From Actinomycetota bacterium (GTDB taxonomy: Bacteria; Actinomycetota; Thermoleophilia; Gaiellales; F1-60-MAGs149): a DNA stretch of 59,246 bases. Of the stretch, positions 35,039 through 58,891 are shown piece by piece. The stretch's first letter is position 1. Every line of letters begins with the position of its first letter. The stretch covers positions 1-59,246 of the forward strand of contig SYIF01000142.1 of NCBI GenBank assembly GCA_005798855.1. Direction: 5' to 3'. The position numbers and the translations under genes are program-made. The notes below the pieces were generated by a model. The model was given only the letters and a program-made list of their open reading frames with translations, searched no databases and was not told where the DNA came from.

Positions 35039-35155
35039 GTCCGCGGAGAATGGGTGCGTCTCGGGTCCGAACGTGCGCGCAGACGATGACAGTCTGTGTG
35101 GGGCCAGCGCCAATCTGAGCCAACGGCGTTGTTGCAGTCGTGGCAGCGTCTGGTC

Positions 35156-36118
35156 ATGGAAACGGAGCTGAACGCACGAGGGATTGTGATTGGTGAGCGG
35201 TATCGGGTGGCCGGTGCGCTGCGGCGCGTCGGCATGATGGAGGCCATCGATCTCGACGCCGATCGTGACGTGGCGGCGTGCCGGATTGTTGGCATTCCTG
35301 GCGACGCTGCAGCTGTAGACGCTTGGGAAGACGCCTGGCGCGAAGCGGAGGTTGCGGCTCGCCTACCTCGACTTCTAGAGGTCGTCACGGATGAAGACGG
35401 TGTGGCCTGGGCTGCCCTGGCGGCAGCGGAGGCGACGGGCGCGGCGTTGCCGCCCGACGCCCGCCGACAGGCCTATGCGATCGGCATGGCGCTGGCAGCA
35501 GCGGGACTCGATGTTGCCGACGTGACACCCCTCATGTTTGCGGTGAATACCCGAGGACGGCTGATCGTCGACGGCGTGCCGTTTCTTGGTGGAGCAGGAC
35601 CAACGCGTTCGGCGGCTGAGCAGCTCGTGGCACTGCTACCGCCCGACCAGGAGCAGGAGGTTGAGCCCGACTGGGTCGAGGCCCCCGTACGGCGGGCCGT
35701 ACGGCAGCGAGGGGCCGCGCGACCGAGGCGACGATTGCTCGTCCCAGGTGCGATTGGAATGATCGTGGCTGCCGCTCTGCTGATCTTGCTGGTGCCGGCG
35801 CGATCGGCTGGCACGCCAAACATCGGTGTCACGATCAAGGCACCAGCAGCGGATGTGCTGCTCGGTGACGCGGCTCACCCAATCGTGGCGGCCGAGCCCG
35901 TCCAGACGGTGACCATCACCGAAGCGGTCCAGCCAGTGCAAGCGAATGCGGAGCGCCAGTCCGCGGAGACATCGGAGAGCGTGGTGAGCAATCCGACTGT
36001 CACCAGCGTCGTTCCAAGCCTGCCGATAGCGGACGTGCCCAACGTACCGCGGGCAGCAGCAGCGGGAGTGCTACTCCCCGTCGAGAGCGGCATCCCGGTC
36101 GTCCCGCCCGGCGGTTGA
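35156..36118 (+). CDS. Hypothetical membrane protein with a degenerate Ser/Thr-kinase-like N-terminal domain, one TM helix and a Pro/Val/Ala-rich C-terminal region
   Basis: IGERYRVAGALRRVGMMEAIDLDADRDVAACRIV mimics the kinase N-lobe start, but the GxGxxG loop and the VAxK lysine are lost. AAGLDVADVTPLMFAV..GRLIVDGVPFLG mimics the HRDxKPxN...DFG segment, also degenerate. A TM segment (LLVPGAIGMIVAAALLILLVP) follows. Motif-level inference only. Confidence 0.5.
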   Translation: METELNARGIVIGERYRVAGALRRVGMMEAIDLDADRDVAACRIVGIPGDAAAVDAWEDAWREAEVAARLPRLLEVVTDEDGVAWAALAAAEATGAALPPDARRQAYAIGMALAAAGLDVADVTPLMFAVNTRGRLIVDGVPFLGGAGPTRSAAEQLVALLPPDQEQEVEPDWVEAPVRRAVRQRGAARPRRRLLVPGAIGMIVAAALLILLVPARSAGTPNIGVTIKAPAADVLLGDAAHPIVAAEPVQTVTITEAVQPVQANAERQSAETSESVVSNPTVTSVVPSLPIADVPNVPRAAAAGVLLPVESGIPVVPPGG

Positions 36119-36285: not shown

Positions 36286-37296
36286 ATGGAGATTCGTGCT
36301 CACATTGAGAACCTCACGCTGCATGAACCCTTCGAGATTGCCCGTGGCGTTTCGACGCACGAGCCCGTGCTAATTGTGGAGCTTGAGCACGATGGCGTCG
36401 TGGGAATTGGCGAGGGTGCGCCCGTTGACTATCACGGCGAAACGACCGAGGCTATGCTTGCTGAGGCGCAGCGCGATATGGTGCCGCTGATCGGCGACGA
36501 TCCGTTTGCACTCGAGGTGATCATGCACCGGTTGCGTTCGGAAGGACTGATGGGTGGCACGCGGATGGCGATCGATGGCGCGCTGCACGACTGGATTGGG
36601 AAGCGACTTGGGCAGCCGACATGGCGTGTACTCGGACTTGCTCCGACCAGTCCAGCTACCTCATTCACGATTGGGATCGATTCCGTCGAAGGCACCGCCG
36701 ACAAGGTGCGACGCGCCGTCGGGTACCACGTGCTGAAGGTGAAGGTTGGTGGTGCTTCGGATCTCGAGCGCCTCGAAGCCGTTCGTGCGGGCTTTGCCGG
36801 CGCAATTCGGATCGATGGCAACGAAGGCTGGGATATCGAGATCGCAAAGGCAATCACGCCCGATCTGCTCCGACTCGGTGTCGAGTTTGTCGAGCAGCCC
36901 TTTCCTCGTGGTGACAACGACGCGTACCACCAGTACCGCGAGTTGCCCCAACGCCTGCCCGTCGTGCTCGACGAAGGTTGCATCGAGGCCCACGACGTGC
37001 CGCTGGCTGCGACGATGGCCGATGGCGTCAATATCAAGCTCTCGAAGACGGGCGGTATCCGGGGTGCGATGTCGCTTGCTCGAACCGCTCGGGCGCACAC
37101 GTTGTCCGTCATGCTCGGTTGCATGATCGAGTCGCACCTCGGCATCAGCCAGGGCGCTCAGATCGCCTCGCTGATGGATCACATCGATCTGGACGGGCAT
37201 TTGCTGATCGACGACGGACCGTTCGAAGGATTGGGATTTGAGAATGGTGTCGTGACCGTGGCGTCCGCACCTGGACTGGGAGTGAGGGCTGTATGA
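36286..37296 (+). CDS. Enolase-superfamily dipeptide epimerase homologue (L-Ala-D/L-Glu epimerase / N-acyl-amino-acid racemase type)
   Basis: 336 aa. The capping domain begins FEIARG. It has barrel residues (KVKVG, the IRIDGNEGW metal ligand, FVEQP, VVLDEG, NIKLSKTGG). Confidence 0.8.
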   Translation: MEIRAHIENLTLHEPFEIARGVSTHEPVLIVELEHDGVVGIGEGAPVDYHGETTEAMLAEAQRDMVPLIGDDPFALEVIMHRLRSEGLMGGTRMAIDGALHDWIGKRLGQPTWRVLGLAPTSPATSFTIGIDSVEGTADKVRRAVGYHVLKVKVGGASDLERLEAVRAGFAGAIRIDGNEGWDIEIAKAITPDLLRLGVEFVEQPFPRGDNDAYHQYRELPQRLPVVLDEGCIEAHDVPLAATMADGVNIKLSKTGGIRGAMSLARTARAHTLSVMLGCMIESHLGISQGAQIASLMDHIDLDGHLLIDDGPFEGLGFENGVVTVASAPGLGVRAV

Positions 37297-38345
37297 CTGA
37301 GCGTCTCGCAATTCTGGCGGAGGGACTGTTTGATCAGTCCGACGCCAAAACGGGGCACGGCGTGCTGCGCTTCGGCGATCGTGATGTTGTCTGCGTTGTC
37401 GACAGTACGCAGGTGGGTAAGACGTCCGCGAGTGTCGTGCCATTCTCGCGGCGCGACGTCCCGATCGTCGCCGATGTGACCGCCGCTCAGGCACTGGGTG
37501 CTACGACCGTCTTGATCGGCATTGCTCCCGGAGGCGGAAAGTTGACGCCTGCGTGGCGTGAAACGCTGCTCTTGGCGATGTCGCTTGGGCTCAACGTCGA
37601 GGCGGGCCTCCACACGCTGCTGTCGGATGATGCCGAACTGGTGGCCGCTGCGGCCCAGTATGGGGTGGAGGTGCGCGATCTGCGTACGTCGCCTGTGGGG
37701 CTGTCGGTCCCACGCCTCGATCTCTCGCGTTCTGCTGGGATTCGCGTGGTGCATACGGTCGGCACCGATTGTGCAATCGGCAAAATGACGACTGGTCTCG
37801 AGTTGGCTGATGCCGCCAAGGCGCGTGGCCGCCAGAGCGTCTTTGTCGCGACCGGCCAGACGGGAATCGCGATTACGGGCTGGGGTATCGCCGTCGACCA
37901 TGTGATCGCGGATTACATCGCCGGTGCTGCCGAGCGCTTGATCGACGAGGGTGCAACACGCGGCGATCTGCTTTTTCTGGAGGGTCAAGGCTCGCTGATT
38001 CATCCGGGCTACAGCGGTGTTACGCAGGGGCTTCTGCACGGAGCGCAACCCGATGTCCTGGTACTGCAGCACCTGGCGGGGCAGACGGTCAACGATGACT
38101 ATCGGTCGCGACCAATACCGCCGTTGCCCGATGTCGTGCGTCTCTATGAGCAGTCGTCTGCGGCAGTGCGGCCGGCGCGCGTGGCCGCGATCGCGCTCAA
38201 TACGAAGCTGCTCGACGATGCGGGAGCCCAGCGCGCGATCAAAGAGACAGAGGTACTGACCGGCCTCGTTACTGACGACGTGGTGCGCAACGGGCCCGAC
38301 CGACTGCTGGATGCGGTGTTGGACGCTGTCGACGCGTTAGGGTAA
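37293..38345 (+). CDS. DUF1611-family protein (possible D-glutamate N-acetyltransferase DgcN-like)
   Basis: 350 aa, with a 4-nt overlap with the epimerase gene. The segment VHTVGTDCAIGKMTT is a P-loop-like feature typical of DUF1611. The family assignment is from recollection of its sequence character and its known pairing with epimerase homologues. Confidence 0.65.
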   Translation: MTERLAILAEGLFDQSDAKTGHGVLRFGDRDVVCVVDSTQVGKTSASVVPFSRRDVPIVADVTAAQALGATTVLIGIAPGGGKLTPAWRETLLLAMSLGLNVEAGLHTLLSDDAELVAAAAQYGVEVRDLRTSPVGLSVPRLDLSRSAGIRVVHTVGTDCAIGKMTTGLELADAAKARGRQSVFVATGQTGIAITGWGIAVDHVIADYIAGAAERLIDEGATRGDLLFLEGQGSLIHPGYSGVTQGLLHGAQPDVLVLQHLAGQTVNDDYRSRPIPPLPDVVRLYEQSSAAVRPARVAAIALNTKLLDDAGAQRAIKETEVLTGLVTDDVVRNGPDRLLDAVLDAVDALG

Positions 38346-38351
38346 ACCGAC

Positions 38352-38380
38352 TTGACGCGAACGTACGTTCGATCTATTGT
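38352..38380 (+). promoter_or_regulatory. Sigma-70-type promoter TTGACG-17 nt-TATTGT predicted to give a leaderless (or 1-3 nt leader) mRNA for the LysM gene
   Basis: The -35 is at 38352-38357 and the -10 at 38375-38380, with an exact 17-nt spacer. The ATG at 38390 lies 10 nt after the -10 and has no Shine-Dalgarno. Confidence 0.6.
38357..38372. promoter_or_regulatory. LexA (SOS) box 1: GCGAAC-GTAC-GTTCGA
   Basis: 15 of 16 positions match the actinobacterial/Gram-positive consensus TCGAAC-N4-GTTCGA (Cheo box core GAAC-N4-GTTC). It occupies the -35/-10 spacer. Confidence 0.75.
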
Positions 38381-38381
38381 T

Positions 38382-38397
38382 TCGAACATATGTTCGA
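38382..38397. promoter_or_regulatory. LexA (SOS) box 2: TCGAAC-ATAT-GTTCGA
   Basis: Perfect 16/16 match to TCGAAC-N4-GTTCGA. It covers the predicted transcription start and the ATG (38390-38392). Confidence 0.8.
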
Positions 38398-38659
38398 CAT
38401 CCGCATATTCCGTTCCCTGGGACTGCTCCTCGCCGTCCTCGCTCTCGTGCTCGCTTTCGGTCTTCGCAGCGCGCCATCCAGCGCGGGCGCAGCGCCACCG
38501 GTGAGCTATGCCGTGCAGTCGGGCGACACGCTCTGGTCGATCGCCGACGCGTACACGGAAGGCGACCCTCGCGATGTTGTCGCCCAGATGCGGCAGCTCA
38601 ACGACCTGTCGACGACGATGCTCCAGCCGGGGCAGACGCTGTTGTTGCCCGCGATGTAG
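38390..38659 (+). CDS. Small membrane-anchored LysM-domain protein; candidate SOS-inducible cell-division inhibitor (YneA/ChiZ-like architecture)
   Basis: 89 aa. It has an N-terminal TM/signal anchor ([16 protein letters not shown]) and a LysM domain ([16 protein letters not shown]...[10 protein letters not shown]). Two LexA boxes lie on its promoter. Confidence 0.8.
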
Positions 38660-38814
38660 GGTCGAGCGATGCCGGTTTGGTTGTCACTGAATGTTGGCGT
38701 TGTGTTCACGCTAAGCCAGTTCTCGGACGAGATATTCGGACATTGTTAGGAGTCCGACAGGATTCGCCGATTCGAGTAGCGGATCGGCTTGCAACGCGGA
38801 ATCCTGACGAGGCC

Positions 38815-39762
38815 ATGACAGCAATCGCCACATCCAAGCGCCCTACGCGCACACTCCGTGTCGTCGATCCAGAGACCGTCTTTGACGCTCCGGTCGCCGA
38901 TGTCGCCATTGACGATTCCTTCGACGAGACTCCCGAAGTTGATCTGCTTTTCACCTACGTGCGACAGATTGGCGACGGGCGTCTGTTGAGTGCCGGCGAA
39001 GAGGCCGCCCTCGCGCGCCGCAAGGATGCAGGAGACATGCACGCCAAGCAAGAGCTTGTCGAGCGCAACCTACGGCTCGTGATGTCGATTGCGCGTCCCT
39101 ACAGCGCAGCCTCGGGTGTGCCAATGCTCGACCTGATCCAAGAGGGCAACGTCGGCCTGATGCGCGCCGTGGAGAAGTTCGACCACACCAAGGGTTTCAA
39201 GTTGTCGACGTACGCAACGTGGTGGATCAAGCAAGCCATCAGTCGCGCGATCGCCGATCAAGGACGCACGATTCGCCTGCCCGTCCATGTTGTTGACAAC
39301 CTCAAGCGCGTCCGCAAGGCCGAACGACGGCTGCGACAGGAGTTAGGGCGTCCCGCGACGCCCGAAGAACTGTCGACGGCGACGGGTCTTGGTCTCAAAA
39401 AAGTAACTGCACTGCTCGACATCGTCGACGACCCGATCTCCTTGGATGTCAGCGTCGGAGACGGCGACTCGGACATCGCCGATCTCGTCGAGGACCAGAA
39501 CGCCACGCAGCCGGATGCCGCGATCACCGAAGGTGACGTGTCGGTCGACCTGCAGCAGGCACTCGATCAACTGCACGGCCAGGAGCGTAAAGTTGTAGAG
39601 CTGCGTTTCGGACTCGACGGCAACGGCACGAGAACGCTCGATCAGGTCAGCAGCACGTTGGGCTGTACCCGCGAGCGAGTGCGTCAGGTCGAAGGCCGCG
39701 CGCTCAGCGCGTTGGCCAAGGCGAATCCGGAGTTGCGCGAGTATCTCGCGCTGAGTGCCTGA
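38815..39762 (+). CDS. Sigma-70 family RNA polymerase sigma factor, group 2 (SigB/HrdB-like, lacking a long region 1.1)
   Basis: It has region 2 ([36 protein letters not shown]), region 3 (IRLPVH) and region 4 ([20 protein letters not shown]). The ATG at 38815 is preceded by GAGG. The long track ORF from 38377 is a spurious N-terminal extension that overlaps the LysM gene in another frame. Confidence 0.9.
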
Positions 39763-52936: not shown

Positions 52937-53670
52937 CGCTCCGCATTGTGCCGCTCTACCCCGAGCTGCTGTCGATCTATGCCGATCGTGGCAACGTTCG
53001 CGTGCTCGAGCAGCGCGCGCACTGGCGTGGGCTTCCGGTCGAAGTTGTGCCGCTTGCGCTCGGTGCGTCGTTCGATCCAGAGCAGGCCGATGTGATCTTG
53101 ATTGGTGGTGGTCAGGACCGCGATCAGGCACTAGTGGCCGAAGCATTGATTGCGCAGGCACCCGCGTTACGCTCCGCGATTGCCGACGGAGTGCCCGTGC
53201 TGGCTGTCTGTGGCGGGTACCAGCTGCTCGGACACCGCTACGTCGACCAATCGGGTCGTCACACGCCGGGCACGGGCCTCGTCGATCTCGAAACCCACGC
53301 TGGACCAACACGCCTCGTCGGCAACGTCGTTGTGGATGTCGACCTTGCCGGCACCCACCACGAGTTGGTCGGTTTCGAAAACCACGCAGGCCGAACCATT
53401 CTCGGACCTGGCATCGCTCCGCTAGGGAAGGTCATCGTCGGTGGAGGAAACGACGGGACCGGGACGGCAGAAGGCTGTCTTGAGGGCCGCATCGTCGGTA
53501 CGTATGTACACGGCCCGCTGCTCCCGAAGAATCCGTGGTTGGCAGATCAACTGCTCGCTTGGGCCTGCGAACATCGTGGCCTCCCCACCACGCTCGCTCC
53601 GCTCGACGATCAGCTAGAACAGGCAGCAGCCGGAGCCGCCGCTGCCCTCGCGCGCAGCGAACGCCGCTAA
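52933..53670 (+). CDS. gatD: Lipid II isoglutaminyl synthase, glutaminase subunit GatD (CobQ/CobB-type amidotransferase)
   Basis: It has LYPELLSIYADRGN, LIGGGQD, the catalytic Cys in AVCGGYQLLG and THGPLLPKNP-like YVHGPLLPKNP. The start forms an ATGA overlap with murT. Confidence 0.88.
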   Translation: MTLRIVPLYPELLSIYADRGNVRVLEQRAHWRGLPVEVVPLALGASFDPEQADVILIGGGQDRDQALVAEALIAQAPALRSAIADGVPVLAVCGGYQLLGHRYVDQSGRHTPGTGLVDLETHAGPTRLVGNVVVDVDLAGTHHELVGFENHAGRTILGPGIAPLGKVIVGGGNDGTGTAEGCLEGRIVGTYVHGPLLPKNPWLADQLLAWACEHRGLPTTLAPLDDQLEQAAAGAAAALARSERR

Positions 53671-54122
53671 GGCACCCACATCCGACCGAGCGACACGAAC
53701 GCATCGCCCGGGCGATAGCCACGAAGATAGTCATGGATTGGTGGGCGCAGATCGAGGCCGTCGAGCTCCTGCTGGTCGATGAACGCGTGTCCGAGGACGG
53801 CTGCGTCGTCCGAGCTGAACAACTCGACGTTCGCTGTGGCGAGTTCGATCGCGAAGACCATATGGAGAATGTGGCGGCCTTTTGGGGTGGCGGCTGGTGG
53901 AATCGTTTCCGCAAGTGCAATCGGCCCGCGGATCGCCGTGGGCGGCATGCCGCACTCCTCGGCGATCTCGCGCAGCAATGCATCCTCGAGCTCTTCCCCC
54001 TCCTCGACGCCCCCACCGGGCAGAAGCCAGTACGTACGCCCGTCCTTCTGCTGACGAACCAGTAGGACGCGGCCACCGTTGATCAGCAGGCCGGCGACGC
54101 GAATGCGCAGACCGTCGGTCAT
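53667..54122 (-). CDS. NUDIX hydrolase
   Basis: 151 aa. The Nudix box is present: GGGVEEGEELEDALLREIAEECG. Confidence 0.85.
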   Translation of the reverse strand: MTDGLRIRVAGLLINGGRVLLVRQQKDGRTYWLLPGGGVEEGEELEDALLREIAEECGMPPTAIRGPIALAETIPPAATPKGRHILHMVFAIELATANVELFSSDDAAVLGHAFIDQQELDGLDLRPPIHDYLRGYRPGDAFVSLGRMWVP

Positions 54123-54559
54123 GCCGACTGTCCCGTCGATCCGAAACCTCCCGTGCCTCGCGTGGACTCGGGCAAACTGTCGTGCTCGGCGAAGGTGACG
54201 GTCGGCAGAGCGGTAATCAGCAGCTGCGCAATGCGATCGCCGCTGGCAATCGTGTACGTCGTCGTTTGGTCGTGGTTGATCAGGACCACCTTGACCTCGC
54301 CACGGTAGCCCGCGTCGATCAAGCCTGGAGCATTGAGTACCGTCACGCCGGCCTTGAGCGCGAGCCCGGAGCGCGGCAGAACCAGCGCGGCAAGGCCATC
54401 GGGAAGCGCAATCCCGAACCCACAGCCGATCGCCTCTCGCTGTCCTGGGGCCAGCGCTGCGGACTCTGCTGCGTACAGATCAAAGCCCGCATCGCTCGCG
54501 TGCGCCTGCGTGGGAAGGCGCGCGTCGTCGTGCATCCGCAGCCAGGTGATCTCACTCAT
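54119..54559 (-). CDS. dut: dUTP diphosphatase
   Basis: 146 aa. It has AGFDLYA, PRSGLALK, IDAGYRGE and RG.GGFGSTG motifs. Confidence 0.93.
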   Translation of the reverse strand: MSEITWLRMHDDARLPTQAHASDAGFDLYAAESAALAPGQREAIGCGFGIALPDGLAALVLPRSGLALKAGVTVLNAPGLIDAGYRGEVKVVLINHDQTTTYTIASGDRIAQLLITALPTVTFAEHDSLPESTRGTGGFGSTGQSA

Positions 54560-55845
54560 GCCGGCACCGATGGTGAGACAGCAAAGCGTGCGTAGCGATC
54601 TCGCTCGGCCTTCGGCAGACGCGCACGGATGCGTACGCCCTCCGACGTGTCCTCGCGCGAGGTAATCGGTGCGCCCAGCGCGTAGAGCGCGGACAACACA
54701 CTGCCCTCGCTATGTGGCACCAGGAGATCGGTGGGCTCGAAGCGACCAGAGAAGTGCTCGGCGATGGCAATTTCCAGTTCCTCAAGGCCCTCGCGCGTGT
54801 TGGCGCTGACTTGGATCGCCATCGGCAGGCGGTTGTGGAGCCGTTCGCGATTCTCGGGCGAGACGAGGTCGATCTTGTTGAGCACGATGATCTGTGGCAG
54901 ATCGGAGGCGCCGATCTGTTCGAGCACGTCACCGACGGCGCGCATCTGCTCGTTGCGCTCTTCCTCTTCGATCGCCCCATCGACGACGTGTACGAGCAGG
55001 TCGCCGGCGAGCGTCTCTTCGAGCGTCGAGGCAAACGCGTCGACGAGGCCGTGCGGCAGCTTGCGAATAAAGCCGACGGTGTCCGTAATCGTGTAAGCGC
55101 GACCGACGTGCTGGAACTTGCGCGTCGTTGGGTCGAGCGTCTCGAAGAGTCGGTTGCGGCTCGACACCTCGGCGCCCGTGAGAGCGTTGAGAAGGCTGGA
55201 CTTGCCAACGTTCGTGTAGCCGGCTAGTGATACCGTCGGCACCATGCCCTCGGTGCGCTGCTTGCGTTGCAGGCGACGGCGCTTGCTCGTCTCCTTGATC
55301 CGCCGCCGGAGCAGCGTGATGCGATCGCGAGCAAGGCGACGGTCGGTCTCGAGCTGCGACTCGCCCGGACCGCGGGTACCAACGCCGCCGCCGAGGCGCT
55401 CGAGGTGGTTCCACATCCCACGCATGCGGGGAAGCTGGTACTCGAGTTGGGCGAGCTCGACTTGGAGCTTGCCCTCCGCCGAATGGGCGTGGCTCGCGAA
55501 GATATCCAAGATCAACGTCGTGCGGTCGATCACGCGGATCGAGAACTGGTTCTCGAGGTAACGCTGCTGCGACGGGGTCAATTCACCGTCAATCACCAAG
55601 ACCTCGGCCTCGGTCTCCTTGATGCACTCCTCTAGCTCAGCAACTTTGCCGCGGCCAAGATAGGTCTTCGCTTCGGGCTGGTCTTTGCGTTGAATCAGTT
55701 CACCGACCGTGCTGCACTGTGCGGTCAGCAGCAACTCGCGCAACTCGGCAACGTCGGCATCAATGCGCTGTGTGGGGCGTGCGATCGCGGCGATGAACGC
55801 CCGCTCGGGCGCCTCGTCACGAATTTGATAGAAGCCGTCACCCAC
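54556..55845 (-). CDS. hflX: GTPase HflX
   Basis: 429 aa. It has the HflX N-domain (GKV.EL), G1 (AGYTNVGKSSL), DTVGFI and NKID. Confidence 0.93.
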   Translation of the reverse strand: MGDGFYQIRDEAPERAFIAAIARPTQRIDADVAELRELLLTAQCSTVGELIQRKDQPEAKTYLGRGKVAELEECIKETEAEVLVIDGELTPSQQRYLENQFSIRVIDRTTLILDIFASHAHSAEGKLQVELAQLEYQLPRMRGMWNHLERLGGGVGTRGPGESQLETDRRLARDRITLLRRRIKETSKRRRLQRKQRTEGMVPTVSLAGYTNVGKSSLLNALTGAEVSSRNRLFETLDPTTRKFQHVGRAYTITDTVGFIRKLPHGLVDAFASTLEETLAGDLLVHVVDGAIEEEERNEQMRAVGDVLEQIGASDLPQIIVLNKIDLVSPENRERLHNRLPMAIQVSANTREGLEELEIAIAEHFSGRFEPTDLLVPHSEGSVLSALYALGAPITSREDTSEGVRIRARLPKAERDRYARFAVSPSVPA

Positions 55846-55874
55846 GTATCAAGCAGTCTACTGGGGGGCGGCGC

Positions 55875-57029
55875 TCAGAGAATGGCGCCGATCCGCTCGA
55901 TTGCTTCAGCGAGCCGATCCTCAGGGATCGTCAGAGCCATGCGAACGAAGCCTTCGCCCGCGGCTCCGTAGGCATTCCCGGGCGTTACGACGACTGCTGC
56001 TTGCTCGAACACTCGGTCGGCAAATGCCAACGACGATTCGTCGGTGGGAACGGGCACCCACAGATAGATTGCGCCGGCCGGCGGTGCGACTGGCATGCCA
56101 ATCTCGCCCAGACGGGTGCAGGCGAGATCGCGACGGGCTCGGTAGGTCGCAAGCGGTGGTCCTGCGATGTCTGTCTGCCCGAGCAGCCACGTAGCCGTTC
56201 GCTGGAGCGCCAGAAACATGCCGGAATCGATCTGCGTCTTGAGTCGCTGCAGCGTTGCGATTACCTCGGGGTTGCCGACAGCGAAGGCGATCCTCCAGCC
56301 AGGGATCGAATACGTCTTGGAGAGCGAGAGGATCTCGATGCCGTGCGCGCGAAAGCCGGGATCGGCGAGCGCGCTCGGTGCCGGATCGCCCTCGTAGACG
56401 ATGTCGGCATAGGCGTGGTCGTGGCAGAGCACGAGGTCGTGCTGATTGGCAAAGGCGCCCAATTCCCCGAACAGGCCTGGCCGCGCGATGGCGCCAGTTG
56501 GATTATTGGGAAAGCCAACAATCAGCAGGCGCGCCTGCACCGCGGCTTCCGTCGAAACAGCACTGAGGTCGGGCTGAAATCCGTTTTCAGGCAGCAGCGG
56601 CAGCGGCAGGGACGCAGCGCCTGCCAACAGTGGTCCCCCCGCGTAGACGGGGTAGCCGGGGTCGGCGATCAGCGACAACGAACCAGGGTCCAGAATCGCG
56701 GTCGCAAGGTGCGCCAGTCCCTCCTTCGCACCCAGCAGCGGAAGCACTTCGGTGGCCGGGTCGAGCGAGACACCGAAGCGACGCTGATAGTAGTCCGAGA
56801 CGGCCTCGCGTAGCGCGGGCTCGCCGTGGTTGGTCGGATAGCGCGCAGCGTCGTTGCGTTGTACTTCGAGCGCCAGTCGCTTGCGCAGGGCCGGATCGGG
56901 CGGTAGGTCTGGGTCGCCGATCCCAAGCGAGATCACGTCAACGCCACGTGCCCGAGCTTCGGCGATTGCGCGATTGAGGCGCGCCACGACGTACTCGGGA
57001 ATCGTGTCCATGCGGTCGGAAAGCTGCAC
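55875..57029 (-). CDS. Class I/II PLP aminotransferase, probable diaminopimelate-pathway aminotransferase (DapC or LL-DAP aminotransferase type)
   Basis: 384 aa. It has LGIGDPD, NNPTG and SLSKTYSIPGWRIAF (PLP lysine). It is collinear with dapD-dapE-dapF. The specificity is inferred from context. Confidence 0.75.
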   Translation of the reverse strand: MQLSDRMDTIPEYVVARLNRAIAEARARGVDVISLGIGDPDLPPDPALRKRLALEVQRNDAARYPTNHGEPALREAVSDYYQRRFGVSLDPATEVLPLLGAKEGLAHLATAILDPGSLSLIADPGYPVYAGGPLLAGAASLPLPLLPENGFQPDLSAVSTEAAVQARLLIVGFPNNPTGAIARPGLFGELGAFANQHDLVLCHDHAYADIVYEGDPAPSALADPGFRAHGIEILSLSKTYSIPGWRIAFAVGNPEVIATLQRLKTQIDSGMFLALQRTATWLLGQTDIAGPPLATYRARRDLACTRLGEIGMPVAPPAGAIYLWVPVPTDESSLAFADRVFEQAAVVVTPGNAYGAAGEGFVRMALTIPEDRLAEAIERIGAIL

Positions 57030-57032
57030 GCT

Positions 57033-57827
57033 CTAGGCCAGCATCGAGGCGATCGTCGGAGGCAGATCAAAGCTCTCGATGCGCTCGGCAGGACCGTGCA
57101 TCGTCACGCTACCGTCGTCACCGACATCGATCACGAGCTCGCCGCCGTGCAGCACGACGGTGACGGGACTATCCGCCACGCCGGTTGTCACTGCAGCCAC
57201 GGCGGCAGCGCAGGCACCCGACCCGCAAGCCGGGGTCTCTCCCACCCCGCGCTCCCAGACGCGCATGCGCAGGCGGTGGCGATCGATCACCGTGGTGATC
57301 TCCACGTTGGCGCGCTCGGGAAACCACGAGTGGTGCTCGAGCAGTGGCCCCTGCGTGGCGAGCGGAAACGTATCGACATCGTCGACGGGTATCACCACAT
57401 GGGGATTGCCGACGCTGACGAAGGTGTGGGCATATGGGAAGGCTTCGGCGGTAGGACGGTACTGCGGGCCTGCGAGCGTTGCGGGTGCGAGCTGTGCCGT
57501 GATGGTGTCGCCCTCGACATGACAGGGAAGAATGCCCGCGGCGGTCGCGATCGAGACGTCTGCTTGTACGAGACGTTCTGAGGTCCATCGCGCGACCATG
57601 CGCGTACCGTTGCCACAGGCTTCGCTCTCGGAGCCGTCGGGGTTCCAGATGCGCATGGACACATCTGCGCCGTCAGAGCCCGCAGAGAGCTCTAAAACCC
57701 CGTCTCCGCCGCACTCTGTGACCAGCGCACGCGCGGTAGCTGCCGTCAGCGGCTGTGAGAGCTCACCCGCGTCAAGGAGCAGGTAGATGTTGCCCGCACC
57801 CTGCCAGCGCTCCACGAGCGGTGTCAC
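57033..57827 (-). CDS. dapF: Diaminopimelate epimerase
   Basis: It has GAGNIYLL and two catalytic Cys motifs (ACGNGTR and ACGSGA). The GTG at 57827 forms a GTGA overlap with the dapE stop; the track start at 57890 would overlap dapE by 67 nt. Confidence 0.9.
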   Translation of the reverse strand: MTPLVERWQGAGNIYLLLDAGELSQPLTAATARALVTECGGDGVLELSAGSDGADVSMRIWNPDGSESEACGNGTRMVARWTSERLVQADVSIATAAGILPCHVEGDTITAQLAPATLAGPQYRPTAEAFPYAHTFVSVGNPHVVIPVDDVDTFPLATQGPLLEHHSWFPERANVEITTVIDRHRLRMRVWERGVGETPACGSGACAAAVAAVTTGVADSPVTVVLHGGELVIDVGDDGSVTMHGPAERIESFDLPPTIASMLA

Positions 57828-58891
57828 GGAGCGCTCAACTCCTCCGCCAGCACGCGCTCGCACTCCTCCAGCATCGCGATTTCCACCCATTCTCCGGGCT
57901 GGTGTGCCTGGCTAGGCTCGCCGGGGCCGTAGTTGAAGGCAGGAACACCCCACTCTTGCAGCGTTGCCACATCGGTCCAAGCCTGTTTCGGCAGCACCGC
58001 TAGGCCACTGCGAGCGACAAAATCGCTAACAATCGGATCGGACAGGCGCGGCTCGGCCGGCAAGGCGGTGTCCAGCCATGTCAACTCTGCCTCGGGACCA
58101 GCGAGCGCAACGACCTCGGCCTGCGCTGCCTCAACGGAACGCCCAGGCGCAATCCGCACGTTGACGGAAAGCTCGACACGGTCGGGCAGCACGTTGTGGG
58201 CAATGCCGGCGTTGAGCATGGTGACGGTAACCACGTCGCGGTAGAGCAGGCCATCGACCTCGACCGGAACAGGCTCGCGTCGGGCGAAACGTGCCAGCGC
58301 CTCGGCGAGCGCGAGCGAAATCGCGTTGTCACCTTCCCACGGCCGGGCTGAATGAGCCGACGTGCCACGGAAAACGACCCGCGCGTTAAACGAACCAACA
58401 GCACCGGCGTGGATCGTGCCCGCCGTCGGCTCCAGCACGACGGCCATCTTCGGCTTCGGGTTCAGCAGCGTGGAGTCGGCGAGTACGCGATGAATGCCGT
58501 TATCCGAATTAGGGCCTTCCTCGCGGTCATAGAAGATAAAGGCAACGGGCTGAGGCGCATCGATCATCCGCTCGAGAATGCGCAACATGACGGCGACGCC
58601 GCCCTTCATATCGGAGGCCCCGCGGCCAACGATGCGTTGATCAGTTCGCTCGGCGACCCCACCTACCCAATTCGGCACCGTGTCGAGGTGACCGACCAGG
58701 ACGATCGCCGAGCCCGGGTCGCCCGTCCGCGCTACGATCGAGTTGCCGATGCGCTCGGGAACGATTCCATACGAGCGCACGCGTTTCTCGACGGCGTCGG
58801 CAAGTGCCTGCTCGTCGCCGTACTCCGAGGCGGTCGCGACGAGATCGAAGCACACGTCGGCAACGCTTCCACTGAGGAAGGGTCTAGACAT
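57824..58891 (-). CDS. dapE: Succinyl-diaminopimelate desuccinylase (M20 metallopeptidase)
   Basis: 355 aa from the ATG at 58891. It has LVGHLDTVP, GRGASDMKGG and EEG motifs, with an 8-nt overlap with the dapD stop. Confidence 0.85.
   Translation of the reverse strand: MSRPFLSGSVADVCFDLVATASEYGDEQALADAVEKRVRSYGIVPERIGNSIVARTGDPGSAIVLVGHLDTVPNWVGGVAERTDQRIVGRGASDMKGGVAVMLRILERMIDAPQPVAFIFYDREEGPNSDNGIHRVLADSTLLNPKPKMAVVLEPTAGTIHAGAVGSFNARVVFRGTSAHSARPWEGDNAISLALAEALARFARREPVPVEVDGLLYRDVVTVTMLNAGIAHNVLPDRVELSVNVRIAPGRSVEAAQAEVVALAGPEAELTWLDTALPAEPRLSDPIVSDFVARSGLAVLPKQAWTDVATLQEWGVPAFNYGPGEPSQAHQPGEWVEIAMLEECERVLAEELSAP

Follow-up and report, generated by a model that had tools for sequence, protein, structure and literature searches.

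What controls a short gene whose start codon lies inside an operator, and what does its product do? This question is raised by contig SYIF01000142.1 (NCBI GenBank assembly GCA_005798855.1), a stretch of 59,246 bp from an Actinomycetota bacterium of the Gaiellales (Thermoleophilia), which was analysed at its full length and is called the window here. An open reading frame (ORF) of 89 amino acids in the window is preceded by two palindromes of the type recognised by the SOS repressor LexA. A sequence-only reading had taken this ORF for a relative of the LexA-controlled division inhibitors YneA of Bacillus subtilis and ChiZ (Rv2719c) of Mycobacterium tuberculosis, and had noted that it is not linked to lexA. 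Our analysis suggests that the locus is likely to be a self-contained DNA-damage switch together with its effector gene, that is, a LexA-repressed, leaderless or near-leaderless gene for a YneA-type inhibitor of septal peptidoglycan synthesis.

Two LexA-type operators in one promoter

The LexA consensus of actinobacteria is TCGAAC(N4)GTTCGA (PMC3381160, PMC9380542). The first palindrome (box 1) matches it at 15 of 16 positions and the second (box 2) at all 16, and their centres are 25 bp apart; every coordinate and match given for them in the sequence-only reading was verified (Table 1). The layout of 38352-38397 is TTGACG-CGAACGTACGTTCG-atc-TATTGT-t-TCGAACATATGTTCGA. In a scan of 37800-39400, the promoter that had been proposed, TTGACG-17-TATTGT, was the sole sigma-70-like match. 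Box 1 had also been said to fill the promoter spacer exactly. This is true of its core (38358-38371), a perfect CGAAC-N4-GTTCG that lies entirely within the spacer, and not of the 16-mer, which has its first G in common with the -35 hexamer and ends 2 nt before the -10. Box 2 begins 2 nt past the -10 and runs over the ATG. The box spacing of 25 bp (23-24 bp in relatives) is probably set by the promoter geometry and not by helical phasing.

The 59,246 bp contain the 10-base core CGAAC-N4-GTTCG at two places only, both in this promoter, against an expectation of 0.09. None of 100 dinucleotide-preserving shuffles of the window contained two or more cores. The looser pattern GAAC-N4-GTTC was found nowhere else in the window, which bears out the claim that there is no other full box in the 59 kb.

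Conservation of the operators in relatives

We aligned the upstream regions of ten loci that were found by protein similarity and not by their boxes (the window, L005, L008, L009, L010, L015, L020, L022, L027 and L034). The invariant non-coding columns were TTGAC, the CGAAC and GTTC(G) of box 1, the TA of the -10, and CGAAC...ATGTTCG of box 2, amid flanks, a -10 interior and a 3' end of the upstream gene that vary. The four central bases of box 1 read GTAC, ACGT, ACCT, GTGT, AAAT, ATAT or GTCT between invariant half-sites. The -10 takes the forms TATTGT, TACTGT, TATTCT, TACCGT, TAACGT, TATCAT and TAGCAT, in which only T-A...T is kept. Both boxes are also present at L018, an eleventh locus retrieved by protein similarity, and no further box was found in the 177 kb of loci retrieved in this way.

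Metagenomes were scanned for two boxes 23-24 bp apart with an ATG in the second, and 120 loci were obtained. The -35 and -10 were not part of this pattern, and their occurrence in the matches is therefore an independent confirmation of the promoter. TTGAC stands just upstream of box 1 in 111 of the 120 loci. The matches include 96 distinct complete ORFs of 78-91 amino acids that begin with Met-Phe and encode a transmembrane (TM) segment plus a LysM domain; TTGAC lies 1-3 nt before box 1 in 80 of these variants, and a hexamer nAnnnT stands between the boxes in 95, with the ATG 7-10 nt after it. The sites are thus consensus palindromes that overlap a core promoter and are conserved amid diverging flanks. 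We regard it as almost beyond doubt that the promoter and its operators are functional.

The metagenomic cassettes, each made up of the promoter, both operators and the gene, were found in two contexts that are mutually exclusive. Downstream of a DUF1611 gene (0.1-5 kb; for example L103, L134 and L151) there are 44, none of them with lexA, and 11 lie between lexA and, where the flank extends, nrdR. LexA in the lexA-linked matches is nearest to the Acidimicrobiia-type bait, and L111 and L185 show the classical arrangement. One further contig, L019 (CAMAWJ010000007.1), is filed under a 'Bifidobacterium breve' metagenome-assembled genome (MAG). Its GC content is 64%, its Gaiellales DUF1611 is 98% and its LysM cassette 93% identical, and it is almost certainly mis-binned.

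A start codon inside box 2

The ATG at 38390 takes its AT from the end of the N4 of box 2 and its G from the start of the right half-site, and the end of the -10 is 9 nt away. Codons 1-3 (ATG TTC GAC, Met-Phe-Asp) encode the right half-site. All 20 aligned Gaiellales-type proteins begin with Met-Phe-Asp, and this start is invariant because the right half of box 2 supplies ATG-TTC-GA. There is no Shine-Dalgarno sequence in the bases preceding the ATG (ctattgtttcgaacat). Both points, box 2 over the start codon and the missing Shine-Dalgarno sequence, had been proposed before and were verified here. The ORF is probably translated from a leaderless or near-leaderless mRNA. The lexA mRNA of M. tuberculosis is leaderless (PMC2897130), which is a precedent in the phylum for a LexA-controlled leaderless mRNA.

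The 89-residue protein

Pfam LysM (PF01476) matches residues 40-87 with an E-value of 6e-12 and 45.7 bits against a cutoff of 20.9. The AlphaFold2 model built from the family alignment has a mean predicted local distance difference test score of 81. In it, a poorly ordered linker joins a helix (residues 4-26) to a beta-alpha-alpha-beta domain (residues 38-86), with strands at 38-41 and 83-86 and helices at 48-55 and 60-70. The top PDB matches of Foldseek were LysM domains without exception, such as 4uz2/4uz3 at about 2.1 Å over a length of about 50 residues. The Kyte-Doolittle maximum in a 17-residue window is 2.67, from residue 9, and eight residues stand ahead of the hydrophobic core. Arg5 and Arg8, N-terminal of the helix, suggest an N-in orientation. 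Pfam and AlphaFold2 agree on the architecture proposed earlier, one TM segment plus LysM.

About 30 homologues of exactly 89 amino acids, with 57-92% identity, were found in MAGs of Thermoleophilia/Gaiellales, and the identical protein is present in MAG GCA_005773085.1 and on an ENA contig of 165.7 kb. From these homologues and the kept gene order, the gene is real and conserved. The LysM domain has a conserved GDPRD insertion, in which D59 and R61 are invariant in the alignment.

A conserved small-residue motif follows the TM helix. It reads ARxSxAxG in the class of 79 amino acids (metagenome proteins L098-L217, residues about 20-27), and its counterpart in the window protein is R-S-A-P-S-S-A-G-A at residues 26-34. 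By resemblance, it could be a signal-peptidase I site or a site of protease recognition or turnover.

Homology to YneA and ChiZ and the origin of the promoter

The YneA model of NCBIfam was the best family for 25 of 25 members tested (best E-value 5e-14). The window protein aligns with this model (NF010723) over residues 13-88 and model positions 9-86 of 87, with an E-value of 1.6e-13. Remote homologues P0035, P0036, P0033 and P0038 stand divergently beside lexA, and the actinomycete ones are then followed by nrdR. The order lexA-X-nrdR was also found at L014, L016, L017 and most Actinomycetota loci, and we take it to be the position of Rv2719c (chiZ) in M. tuberculosis. Family assignment and gene position uphold the proposed kinship, and we hold with high confidence that the protein is a homologue of the YneA/ChiZ class.

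Here, we also searched one genome per species with a profile made from 7 sequences and considered the best 80 loci. lexA is divergently adjacent in about 55 of the 80, as the sequence-only reading had stated for genes of this type. These loci belong to Actinomycetota and Bacillota and span Bifidobacterium, Cellulomonas, Mycobacteriales, Micromonosporaceae, Acidimicrobiia and many Bacillota, with nrdR usually downstream in Actinomycetota. Two-box loci without lexA were of the Thermoleophilia type (L018-L020, L022, L027 and L034); they have no lexA within 7-10 kb, and DUF1611 lies 0.1-5 kb upstream.

The lexA-linked loci inspected in detail have a -35 TTGAC, box 1 in a 16-17-nt spacer, a -10 and box 2. 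The promoter is followed by a leader and a Shine-Dalgarno sequence in Bacillota (L039, L068, L096) and by a leader of about 200 nt in Acidimicrobiia (L021, L025, L036). Deep-branching actinobacterial loci (L042, L046, L054, L055, L086, L094) have a leaderless gene, whose start codon, ATG or GTG, comes 6-7 nt past the -10. Judging by these sequences, the two-box promoter is ancestral and not special to the window gene. The footprint supports the earlier proposal of LexA-type operators; how unusual the arrangement is had been overstated, since it is a feature of the whole lineage and its promoter is ancestral. The window has no counterpart of the third, lexA-proximal box (consensus CAAACATATGTTCG) that the lexA-linked loci carry.

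Several observations were made on the operators of these relatives. At the L042-type genes box 2 lies within the coding sequence, where codons 3-7 encode R-T-x-V-R and an Arg run comes next; the sequence of the N-terminal peptide is therefore set by the operator. The lexA-proximal operator is uniform, CAAAC-(ATAT/TTAT/ACAT/AAAT)-GTTCG, with CAAAC instead of CGAAC as the left half (L012, L016, L017, L021, L025, L036, L037, L042, L046, L054, L055, L068, L086, L094 and L096), and it spans loci labelled Bacillota, Acidimicrobiia, other Actinomycetota and Candidatus Baltobacteraceae. Four loci of 39-45% GC (L061, L066, L083 and L088, of which L061 and L088 are labelled Candidatus Microthrix) carry four tandem LexA boxes, 15-22 bp apart, between lexA and the LysM gene, the densest operator array of the set. 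L026 (CAZDTK010000010.1) has the same two-box promoter, with the LysM gene about 2 kb from lexA (next to miaA). Protease-like and membrane-protein genes separate the two. Although this record is filed as 'uncultured Actinomycetes bacterium', its LexA is 92% identical to Candidatus Dormibacteria proteins.

Identity of the repressor

The window holds no lexA, either by tblastn with LexA of E. coli, actinomycetes and Dormibacteria or by Pfam annotation, and none was found in about 8 kb past the window end on the same ENA contig, so that about 67 kb were covered in all. With the other Thermoleophilia-type loci, where none lies within 7-10 kb, this agrees with the earlier statement that the gene is unlinked from lexA. 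A weak LexA tblastn match at 53640-53732 was rejected; it falls in the GATase/NUDIX region. Pfam annotation of the window showed no recA, uvr or dinB. The 8 kb beyond contain a rodZ-like helix-turn-helix gene, cinA, recA, rny, miaB and miaA, and recA is about 27 kb from the LysM gene on the same contig (L218).

Who reads the two boxes? Two palindromes with LexA specificity that are upheld in more than 100 diverged variants require a cognate binder, and LexA is by far the simplest candidate. On this comparison of sequences the operators are most probably read by LexA.

A few results weigh against the proposed switch and effector. On the side of the regulator, no lexA was found for the Gaiellales lineage by bait and profile searches, which were not whole-genome searches. 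The L026 LexA used as bait returned only LexA of Candidatus Dormibacteria, and the matches of an L042-type LexA profile came without Gaiellales assignment. A representative-library search gave 150 LexA proteins, among which the 10 most GC-rich, looked up in clusters, were singletons, and no Gaiellales LexA was recognised. The deep-branching relative Rubrobacter radiotolerans RSPS-4 has been reported to be without lexA (PMC4148983), and the presence of LexA is therefore not to be taken for granted. The recA gene, the one further SOS gene that the analysis covered, had been expected to carry TCGAAC-N4-GTTCGA, an expectation that failed: its 119-nt upstream region (L218 1513-1631) has no CGAAC-N4-GTTCG, and no GAAC-N4-GTTC even at one mismatch. 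A shared regulon motif is therefore not demonstrated. Several LexA-bearing bacteria, such as Geobacter and Dehalococcoides, have recA outside the LexA regulon; the missing recA box is thus not diagnostic and is compatible with control of the LysM gene by LexA.

On the side of the transcript and the product, the 9-nt gap between -10 and ATG is slightly above the usual 6-7 nt, and the transcript may therefore have a leader of 1-3 nt. The score of the window protein against YneA NF010723 is 50.4 bits, under the equivalog cutoff of 60. LysM is a common domain, and short TM plus LysM proteins may serve other roles. Cleavage at the small-residue motif could free the LysM domain.

Two further observations concern the surroundings of recA and of hflX. 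The recA upstream region has only a single GCGAAC half-site and, at 1575-1591, an everted repeat (GGTTC-N7-GAACC) that follows a possible -10 CATACT, and the RecA-NDp/PafBC-like motif TGTC[AG]GTG-N8-TAnnnT is absent from L218. The genes dapF, aminotransferase, hflX, dut and NUDIX at 53667-57890 recall the neighbourhood of actinomycete lexA-chiZ-nrdR, which at L014 lies a few kb beyond hflX: there lexA is found in the neighbourhood of miaA, dapF and hflX, and in the window hflX is followed by dut and NUDIX. lexA and nrdR are missing at this place, and the LysM gene is 16 kb away on the opposite strand, which suggests a local rearrangement around the hflX region.

Alternative explanations

By analogy with YneA, a role as division inhibitor is somewhat favoured. 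The main alternative, which we think unlikely, is that the gene is LexA-repressed and damage-induced and makes instead a secreted or tethered peptidoglycan-binding factor, which would protect or remodel the wall or act with neighbouring wall genes. The low YneA score fits this explanation, and LysM is a generic peptidoglycan-binding module whose best PDB matches are the LysM domains of wall hydrolases. The S-x-A-like motif after the hydrophobic segment (ARxSxAxG in the 79-residue class, APSSAGA in the window) would even allow the segment to be a cleavable signal peptide. However, a hydrophobic stretch of 17 residues and a modelled helix of 23 are more like an anchor than like the core of a signal peptide. 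YneA itself is turned over by proteolysis, so cleavage would not exclude a YneA-like role. Wall-related genes do lie nearby, the MR_MLE epimerase-like and DUF1611 genes upstream and VanW downstream, but the sigma and VanW neighbours occur in only one sub-clade, and the whole family goes back to YneA/ChiZ-class genes divergent from lexA, whose promoter it has retained.

It is far less probable that the operators are real and not read by LexA, because lexA was lost or another repressor took over, so that the gene would answer to a signal other than RecA/LexA. In its favour, lexA was found neither in the 67 kb around the gene nor at any cassette locus of the DUF1611 type, recA on the same contig has no box, and lexA loss is on record in a deep-branching actinobacterium (PMC4148983). 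However, the sites match the experimentally defined LexA consensus of the phylum (PMC3381160, PMC9380542) and are positionally equivalent to the operators of the lexA-linked relatives, and half-site pairs kept so strictly in more than 100 variants need a binder with LexA specificity. The two absences carry limited weight, since recA may lie outside the regulon and the lexA search did not extend to whole genomes.

The chance that the palindromes are incidental, whether by coincidence or as a hairpin terminator of the DUF1611 operon, is practically nil: the terminator scan did pick out box 1, with its weak hairpin of a 5-bp stem and a 4-nt loop ahead of ATCTATTGTT, but two sites stand 25 bp apart where 0.09 are expected per window, they are phased with a conserved -35 and -10, and the half-sites are conserved in relatives whereas the loop and the T-rich tail are not, a pattern of conservation by which this explanation is effectively refuted.

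Proposed mechanism and evolution

For a LexA-controlled YneA-type inhibitor, we propose the following sequence of events. In the repressed state, two LexA-type dimers would sit on the promoter, the first between -35 and -10, the second across the transcription start together with the start codon, and their occupancy would block RNA polymerase from binding and starting. After DNA damage, RecA-stimulated self-cleavage of LexA would let the promoter fire. The predicted transcript begins at the AUG or 1-3 nt before it and would be translated as a leaderless message, without a Shine-Dalgarno sequence. On a read-through mRNA from DUF1611 the AUG would be internal and have no ribosome-binding site, so little protein would be expected, and hence the LexA-gated start may be the sole source of a potentially toxic protein. 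In the product, 8 residues would lie in the cytoplasm, and a single TM helix and a short linker would connect them to an extracytoplasmic LysM domain. The TM helix may dock on the septal polymerase FtsW and the LysM domain may bind nascent peptidoglycan, so that septal wall synthesis would stall and division be delayed.

As for the evolution of the locus, the promoter, both operators and the gene most likely moved as one cassette from a lexA-divergent site to a DUF1611-proximal site in Thermoleophilia/Gaiellales. This relocation would have lost the lexA-proximal third box. Compared with the L042-type genes, the N-terminal tail would have been trimmed, so that the start codon now lies inside box 2.

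A bolder reading is that the operator pair serves as a stand-alone division-checkpoint switch in a much reduced SOS circuit of Thermoleophilia/Gaiellales. It rests on the two perfect boxes that are kept, on recA without a box and on lexA not being a neighbour, and we think it doubtful. Damage-induced read-through into the sigma factor would be allowed in the sub-clade of the window, where no terminator is predicted ahead of the tightly syntenic sigma-70 and VanW genes. In its extreme form, the boxes would be read by a repressor other than LexA.

Neighbouring genes and the downstream spacer

The features of the locus are collected in Table 1. Pfam confirmed that the gene lies between DUF1611 and sigma-factor genes, as had been stated. 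In the loci of the 89-residue homologues the gene order is MR_MLE racemase-like gene, DUF1611, LysM-89, a sigma-70-family gene of 315 amino acids and VanW. DUF1611 is adjacent to the LysM gene in all Gaiellales-type loci, and in the window the promoter begins 6 nt past the DUF1611 stop codon, with no terminator between. The sigma-70 gene 155 nt after the LysM gene, followed by VanW, is a constant feature of the window's sub-clade and is confined to it; the other cassette loci are without a sigma gene.

Table 1. Positions of the promoter elements, operators, gene, protein segments and neighbours in the 59,246-bp window.
Feature	Position	Strand	Description	Evidence
-35 hexamer	38352-38357	+	TTGACG	Promoter scan
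Box 1	38357-38372	.	GCGAAC-GTAC-GTTCGA, GCGAACGTACGTTCGA; LexA-type operator in the promoter spacer	Match to TCGAAC-N4-GTTCGA
-10 hexamer	38375-38380	+	TATTGT; 17-nt spacer to -35	Promoter scan
Box 2	38382-38397	.	TCGAAC-ATAT-GTTCGA, TCGAACATATGTTCGA; LexA-type operator that spans the predicted start of transcription and the ATG	Match to TCGAAC-N4-GTTCGA
89-amino-acid ORF	38390-38659 (stop included)	+	Small bitopic TM + LysM protein, YneA/ChiZ class	Pfam, NCBIfam, homologues
Transmembrane helix	38399-38467	+	Residues ~4-26, hydrophobic core 9-25	AlphaFold2; Kyte-Doolittle
LysM domain	38501-38650	+	Peptidoglycan-binding, residues ~38-87	Pfam; AlphaFold2; Foldseek
DUF1611 gene	37293-38345	+	Conserved left neighbour, context only	Pfam DUF1611_N + DUF1611
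Spacer	38660-38814	+	155 nt, LysM gene to sigma-70 gene; no predicted terminator, conserved blocks	Terminator scan; alignment
Sigma-70 gene	38815-39762		Downstream gene	Pfam

The scan of 37800-39400 for terminators gave none except box 1 itself, and in five relatives no consistent hairpin was found after the LysM stop codon. SOS read-through into the sigma gene is possible, and it would not be general to the cassette, as the sigma gene is absent at the other cassette loci. The spacer is strongly conserved among Gaiellales loci, with blocks TGTTGGCGTTGTGT at 38692 and GTTAGGAGTCC at 38745, and it contains an 8-bp inverted repeat CAGGATTC (38758) / GAATCCTG (38799) that ends 9 nt before the sigma start codon. 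It showed no clear sigma-70 promoter, no conserved Shine-Dalgarno sequence and one compensatory change only, and an Rfam search of 38300-38900 gave no match. Read-through into the sigma gene or a separate control of it are both possible roles of the spacer. A candidate RecA-NDp/PafBC-like motif, 'TTGTCACTG' at about 38700, had been picked by eye and was rejected; it is not conserved in relatives.

Upstream, the MR_MLE and DUF1611 pair (36286-38345) resembles DgcA/DgcN (N-acetyl-D-Glu racemase and N-acetyltransferase), a likeness well under the cutoffs (236 against 400 bits and 238 against 480 bits). Between ybeY and the racemase gene, 35096-36118 is an Ala/Pro-rich ORF of 340 amino acids without a Pfam match, and at its position a gene of 310-368 amino acids without a Pfam match is called in all Gaiellales-type loci. 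The Pfam annotation of the window further includes mreB, maf, argCJBD, gltX, gcvT, hrcA, dnaJ, phoH, ybeY and cytochrome oxidase genes, as well as murT/gatD, dut, NUDIX, hflX, dapF and an M20 peptidase.

Comparison with known division inhibitors

Like YneA, the window protein combines a very short N-terminus in the cytoplasm with a single TM helix and a single extracytoplasmic LysM domain, in a class of about 90-105 amino acids (89 in the window). The Bacillota homologues beside lexA (L039, L068, L096) have the same promoter plan. However, the window gene is not divergent from lexA and has no operator region in common with it. Whereas a leader and a Shine-Dalgarno sequence stand before the Bacillota homologues, the window mRNA is predicted to be (near-)leaderless, with its start codon inside box 2. 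In YneA the TM helix binds TM7 of FtsW and the LysM domain binds peptidoglycan, as is needed to stop septal wall synthesis, and ChiZ is predicted to act likewise; DdcA, DdcP and CtpA are factors of YneA turnover (PMC13396833).

ChiZ belongs to the same phylum as the window protein and has a TM helix, a C-terminal LysM domain and several boxes of the TCGAAC-N4-GTTCGA type (PMC3381160). The homologues at the ChiZ position (P0036, P0033 and P0038; lexA-X-nrdR) match the window protein at E-values of 1e-8 to 1e-9. Unlike chiZ, the window gene is linked to neither lexA nor nrdR. The same three lexA-linked actinomycete proteins have an Arg/Pro/Ser-rich N-terminal extension of about 50 residues, as against 8 residues in the window protein, and this extension resembles the disordered residues 1-64 of ChiZ (PMC7355643). 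The Thermoleophilia proteins have no extension and are therefore more YneA-like in look. A PDB sequence search for ChiZ returned only generic LysM domains. The lexA and Rv2719c genes have a common multi-box region, the three Rv2719c boxes have 2-3 mismatches, and the induction of Rv2719c has mostly been attributed to a RecA-independent promoter (PMC3381160). The window boxes, in contrast to these, are perfect or near-perfect.

The L042-type genes come with the same promoter logic, a leaderless gene and box 2 at the start of the message. However, box 2 lies just after the start codon there (R-T-x-V-R) and around the start codon in the window (Met-Phe), and the L042-type genes keep lexA and nrdR as neighbours and the third box, unlike the window gene.

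The same idea, a small membrane protein made upon damage that blocks a late step of division, is realised in SosA of Staphylococcus aureus and SidA of Caulobacter. DivS of Corynebacterium is likewise an SOS-induced small membrane division inhibitor. No sequence relationship of the window protein to SosA, SidA or DivS was detected; DivS itself was not examined. SosA and SidA are predicted to bind TM7 of FtsW, and SosA has no LysM domain (PMC13396833).

Implications

The YneA/ChiZ class of LexA-controlled division inhibitors is already known, and it is newly extended here to Thermoleophilia/Gaiellales, an abundant soil lineage that has hardly been cultured; we found no literature on SOS in Thermoleophilia or Gaiella. 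Two things are notable, the lack of linkage to lexA across the whole lineage and the predicted leaderless start codon inside an operator. The two-box plan is less exceptional; it is common to the inspected lexA-linked relatives of Bacillota and Actinomycetota, some of which are also leaderless. The cassette does not overturn the current understanding of these inhibitors.

The gene travels with its two-operator promoter as a cassette, which makes lexA adjacency an unreliable criterion for finding such genes. The cassette is also a clean natural case in which a start codon, predicted to be leaderless, falls within an operator. The recA gene without a box hints at a small LexA regulon in this lineage. 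With 78-89 amino acids, these proteins are a minimal natural form of the inhibitor, suited to a test of the model in which it docks on FtsW.

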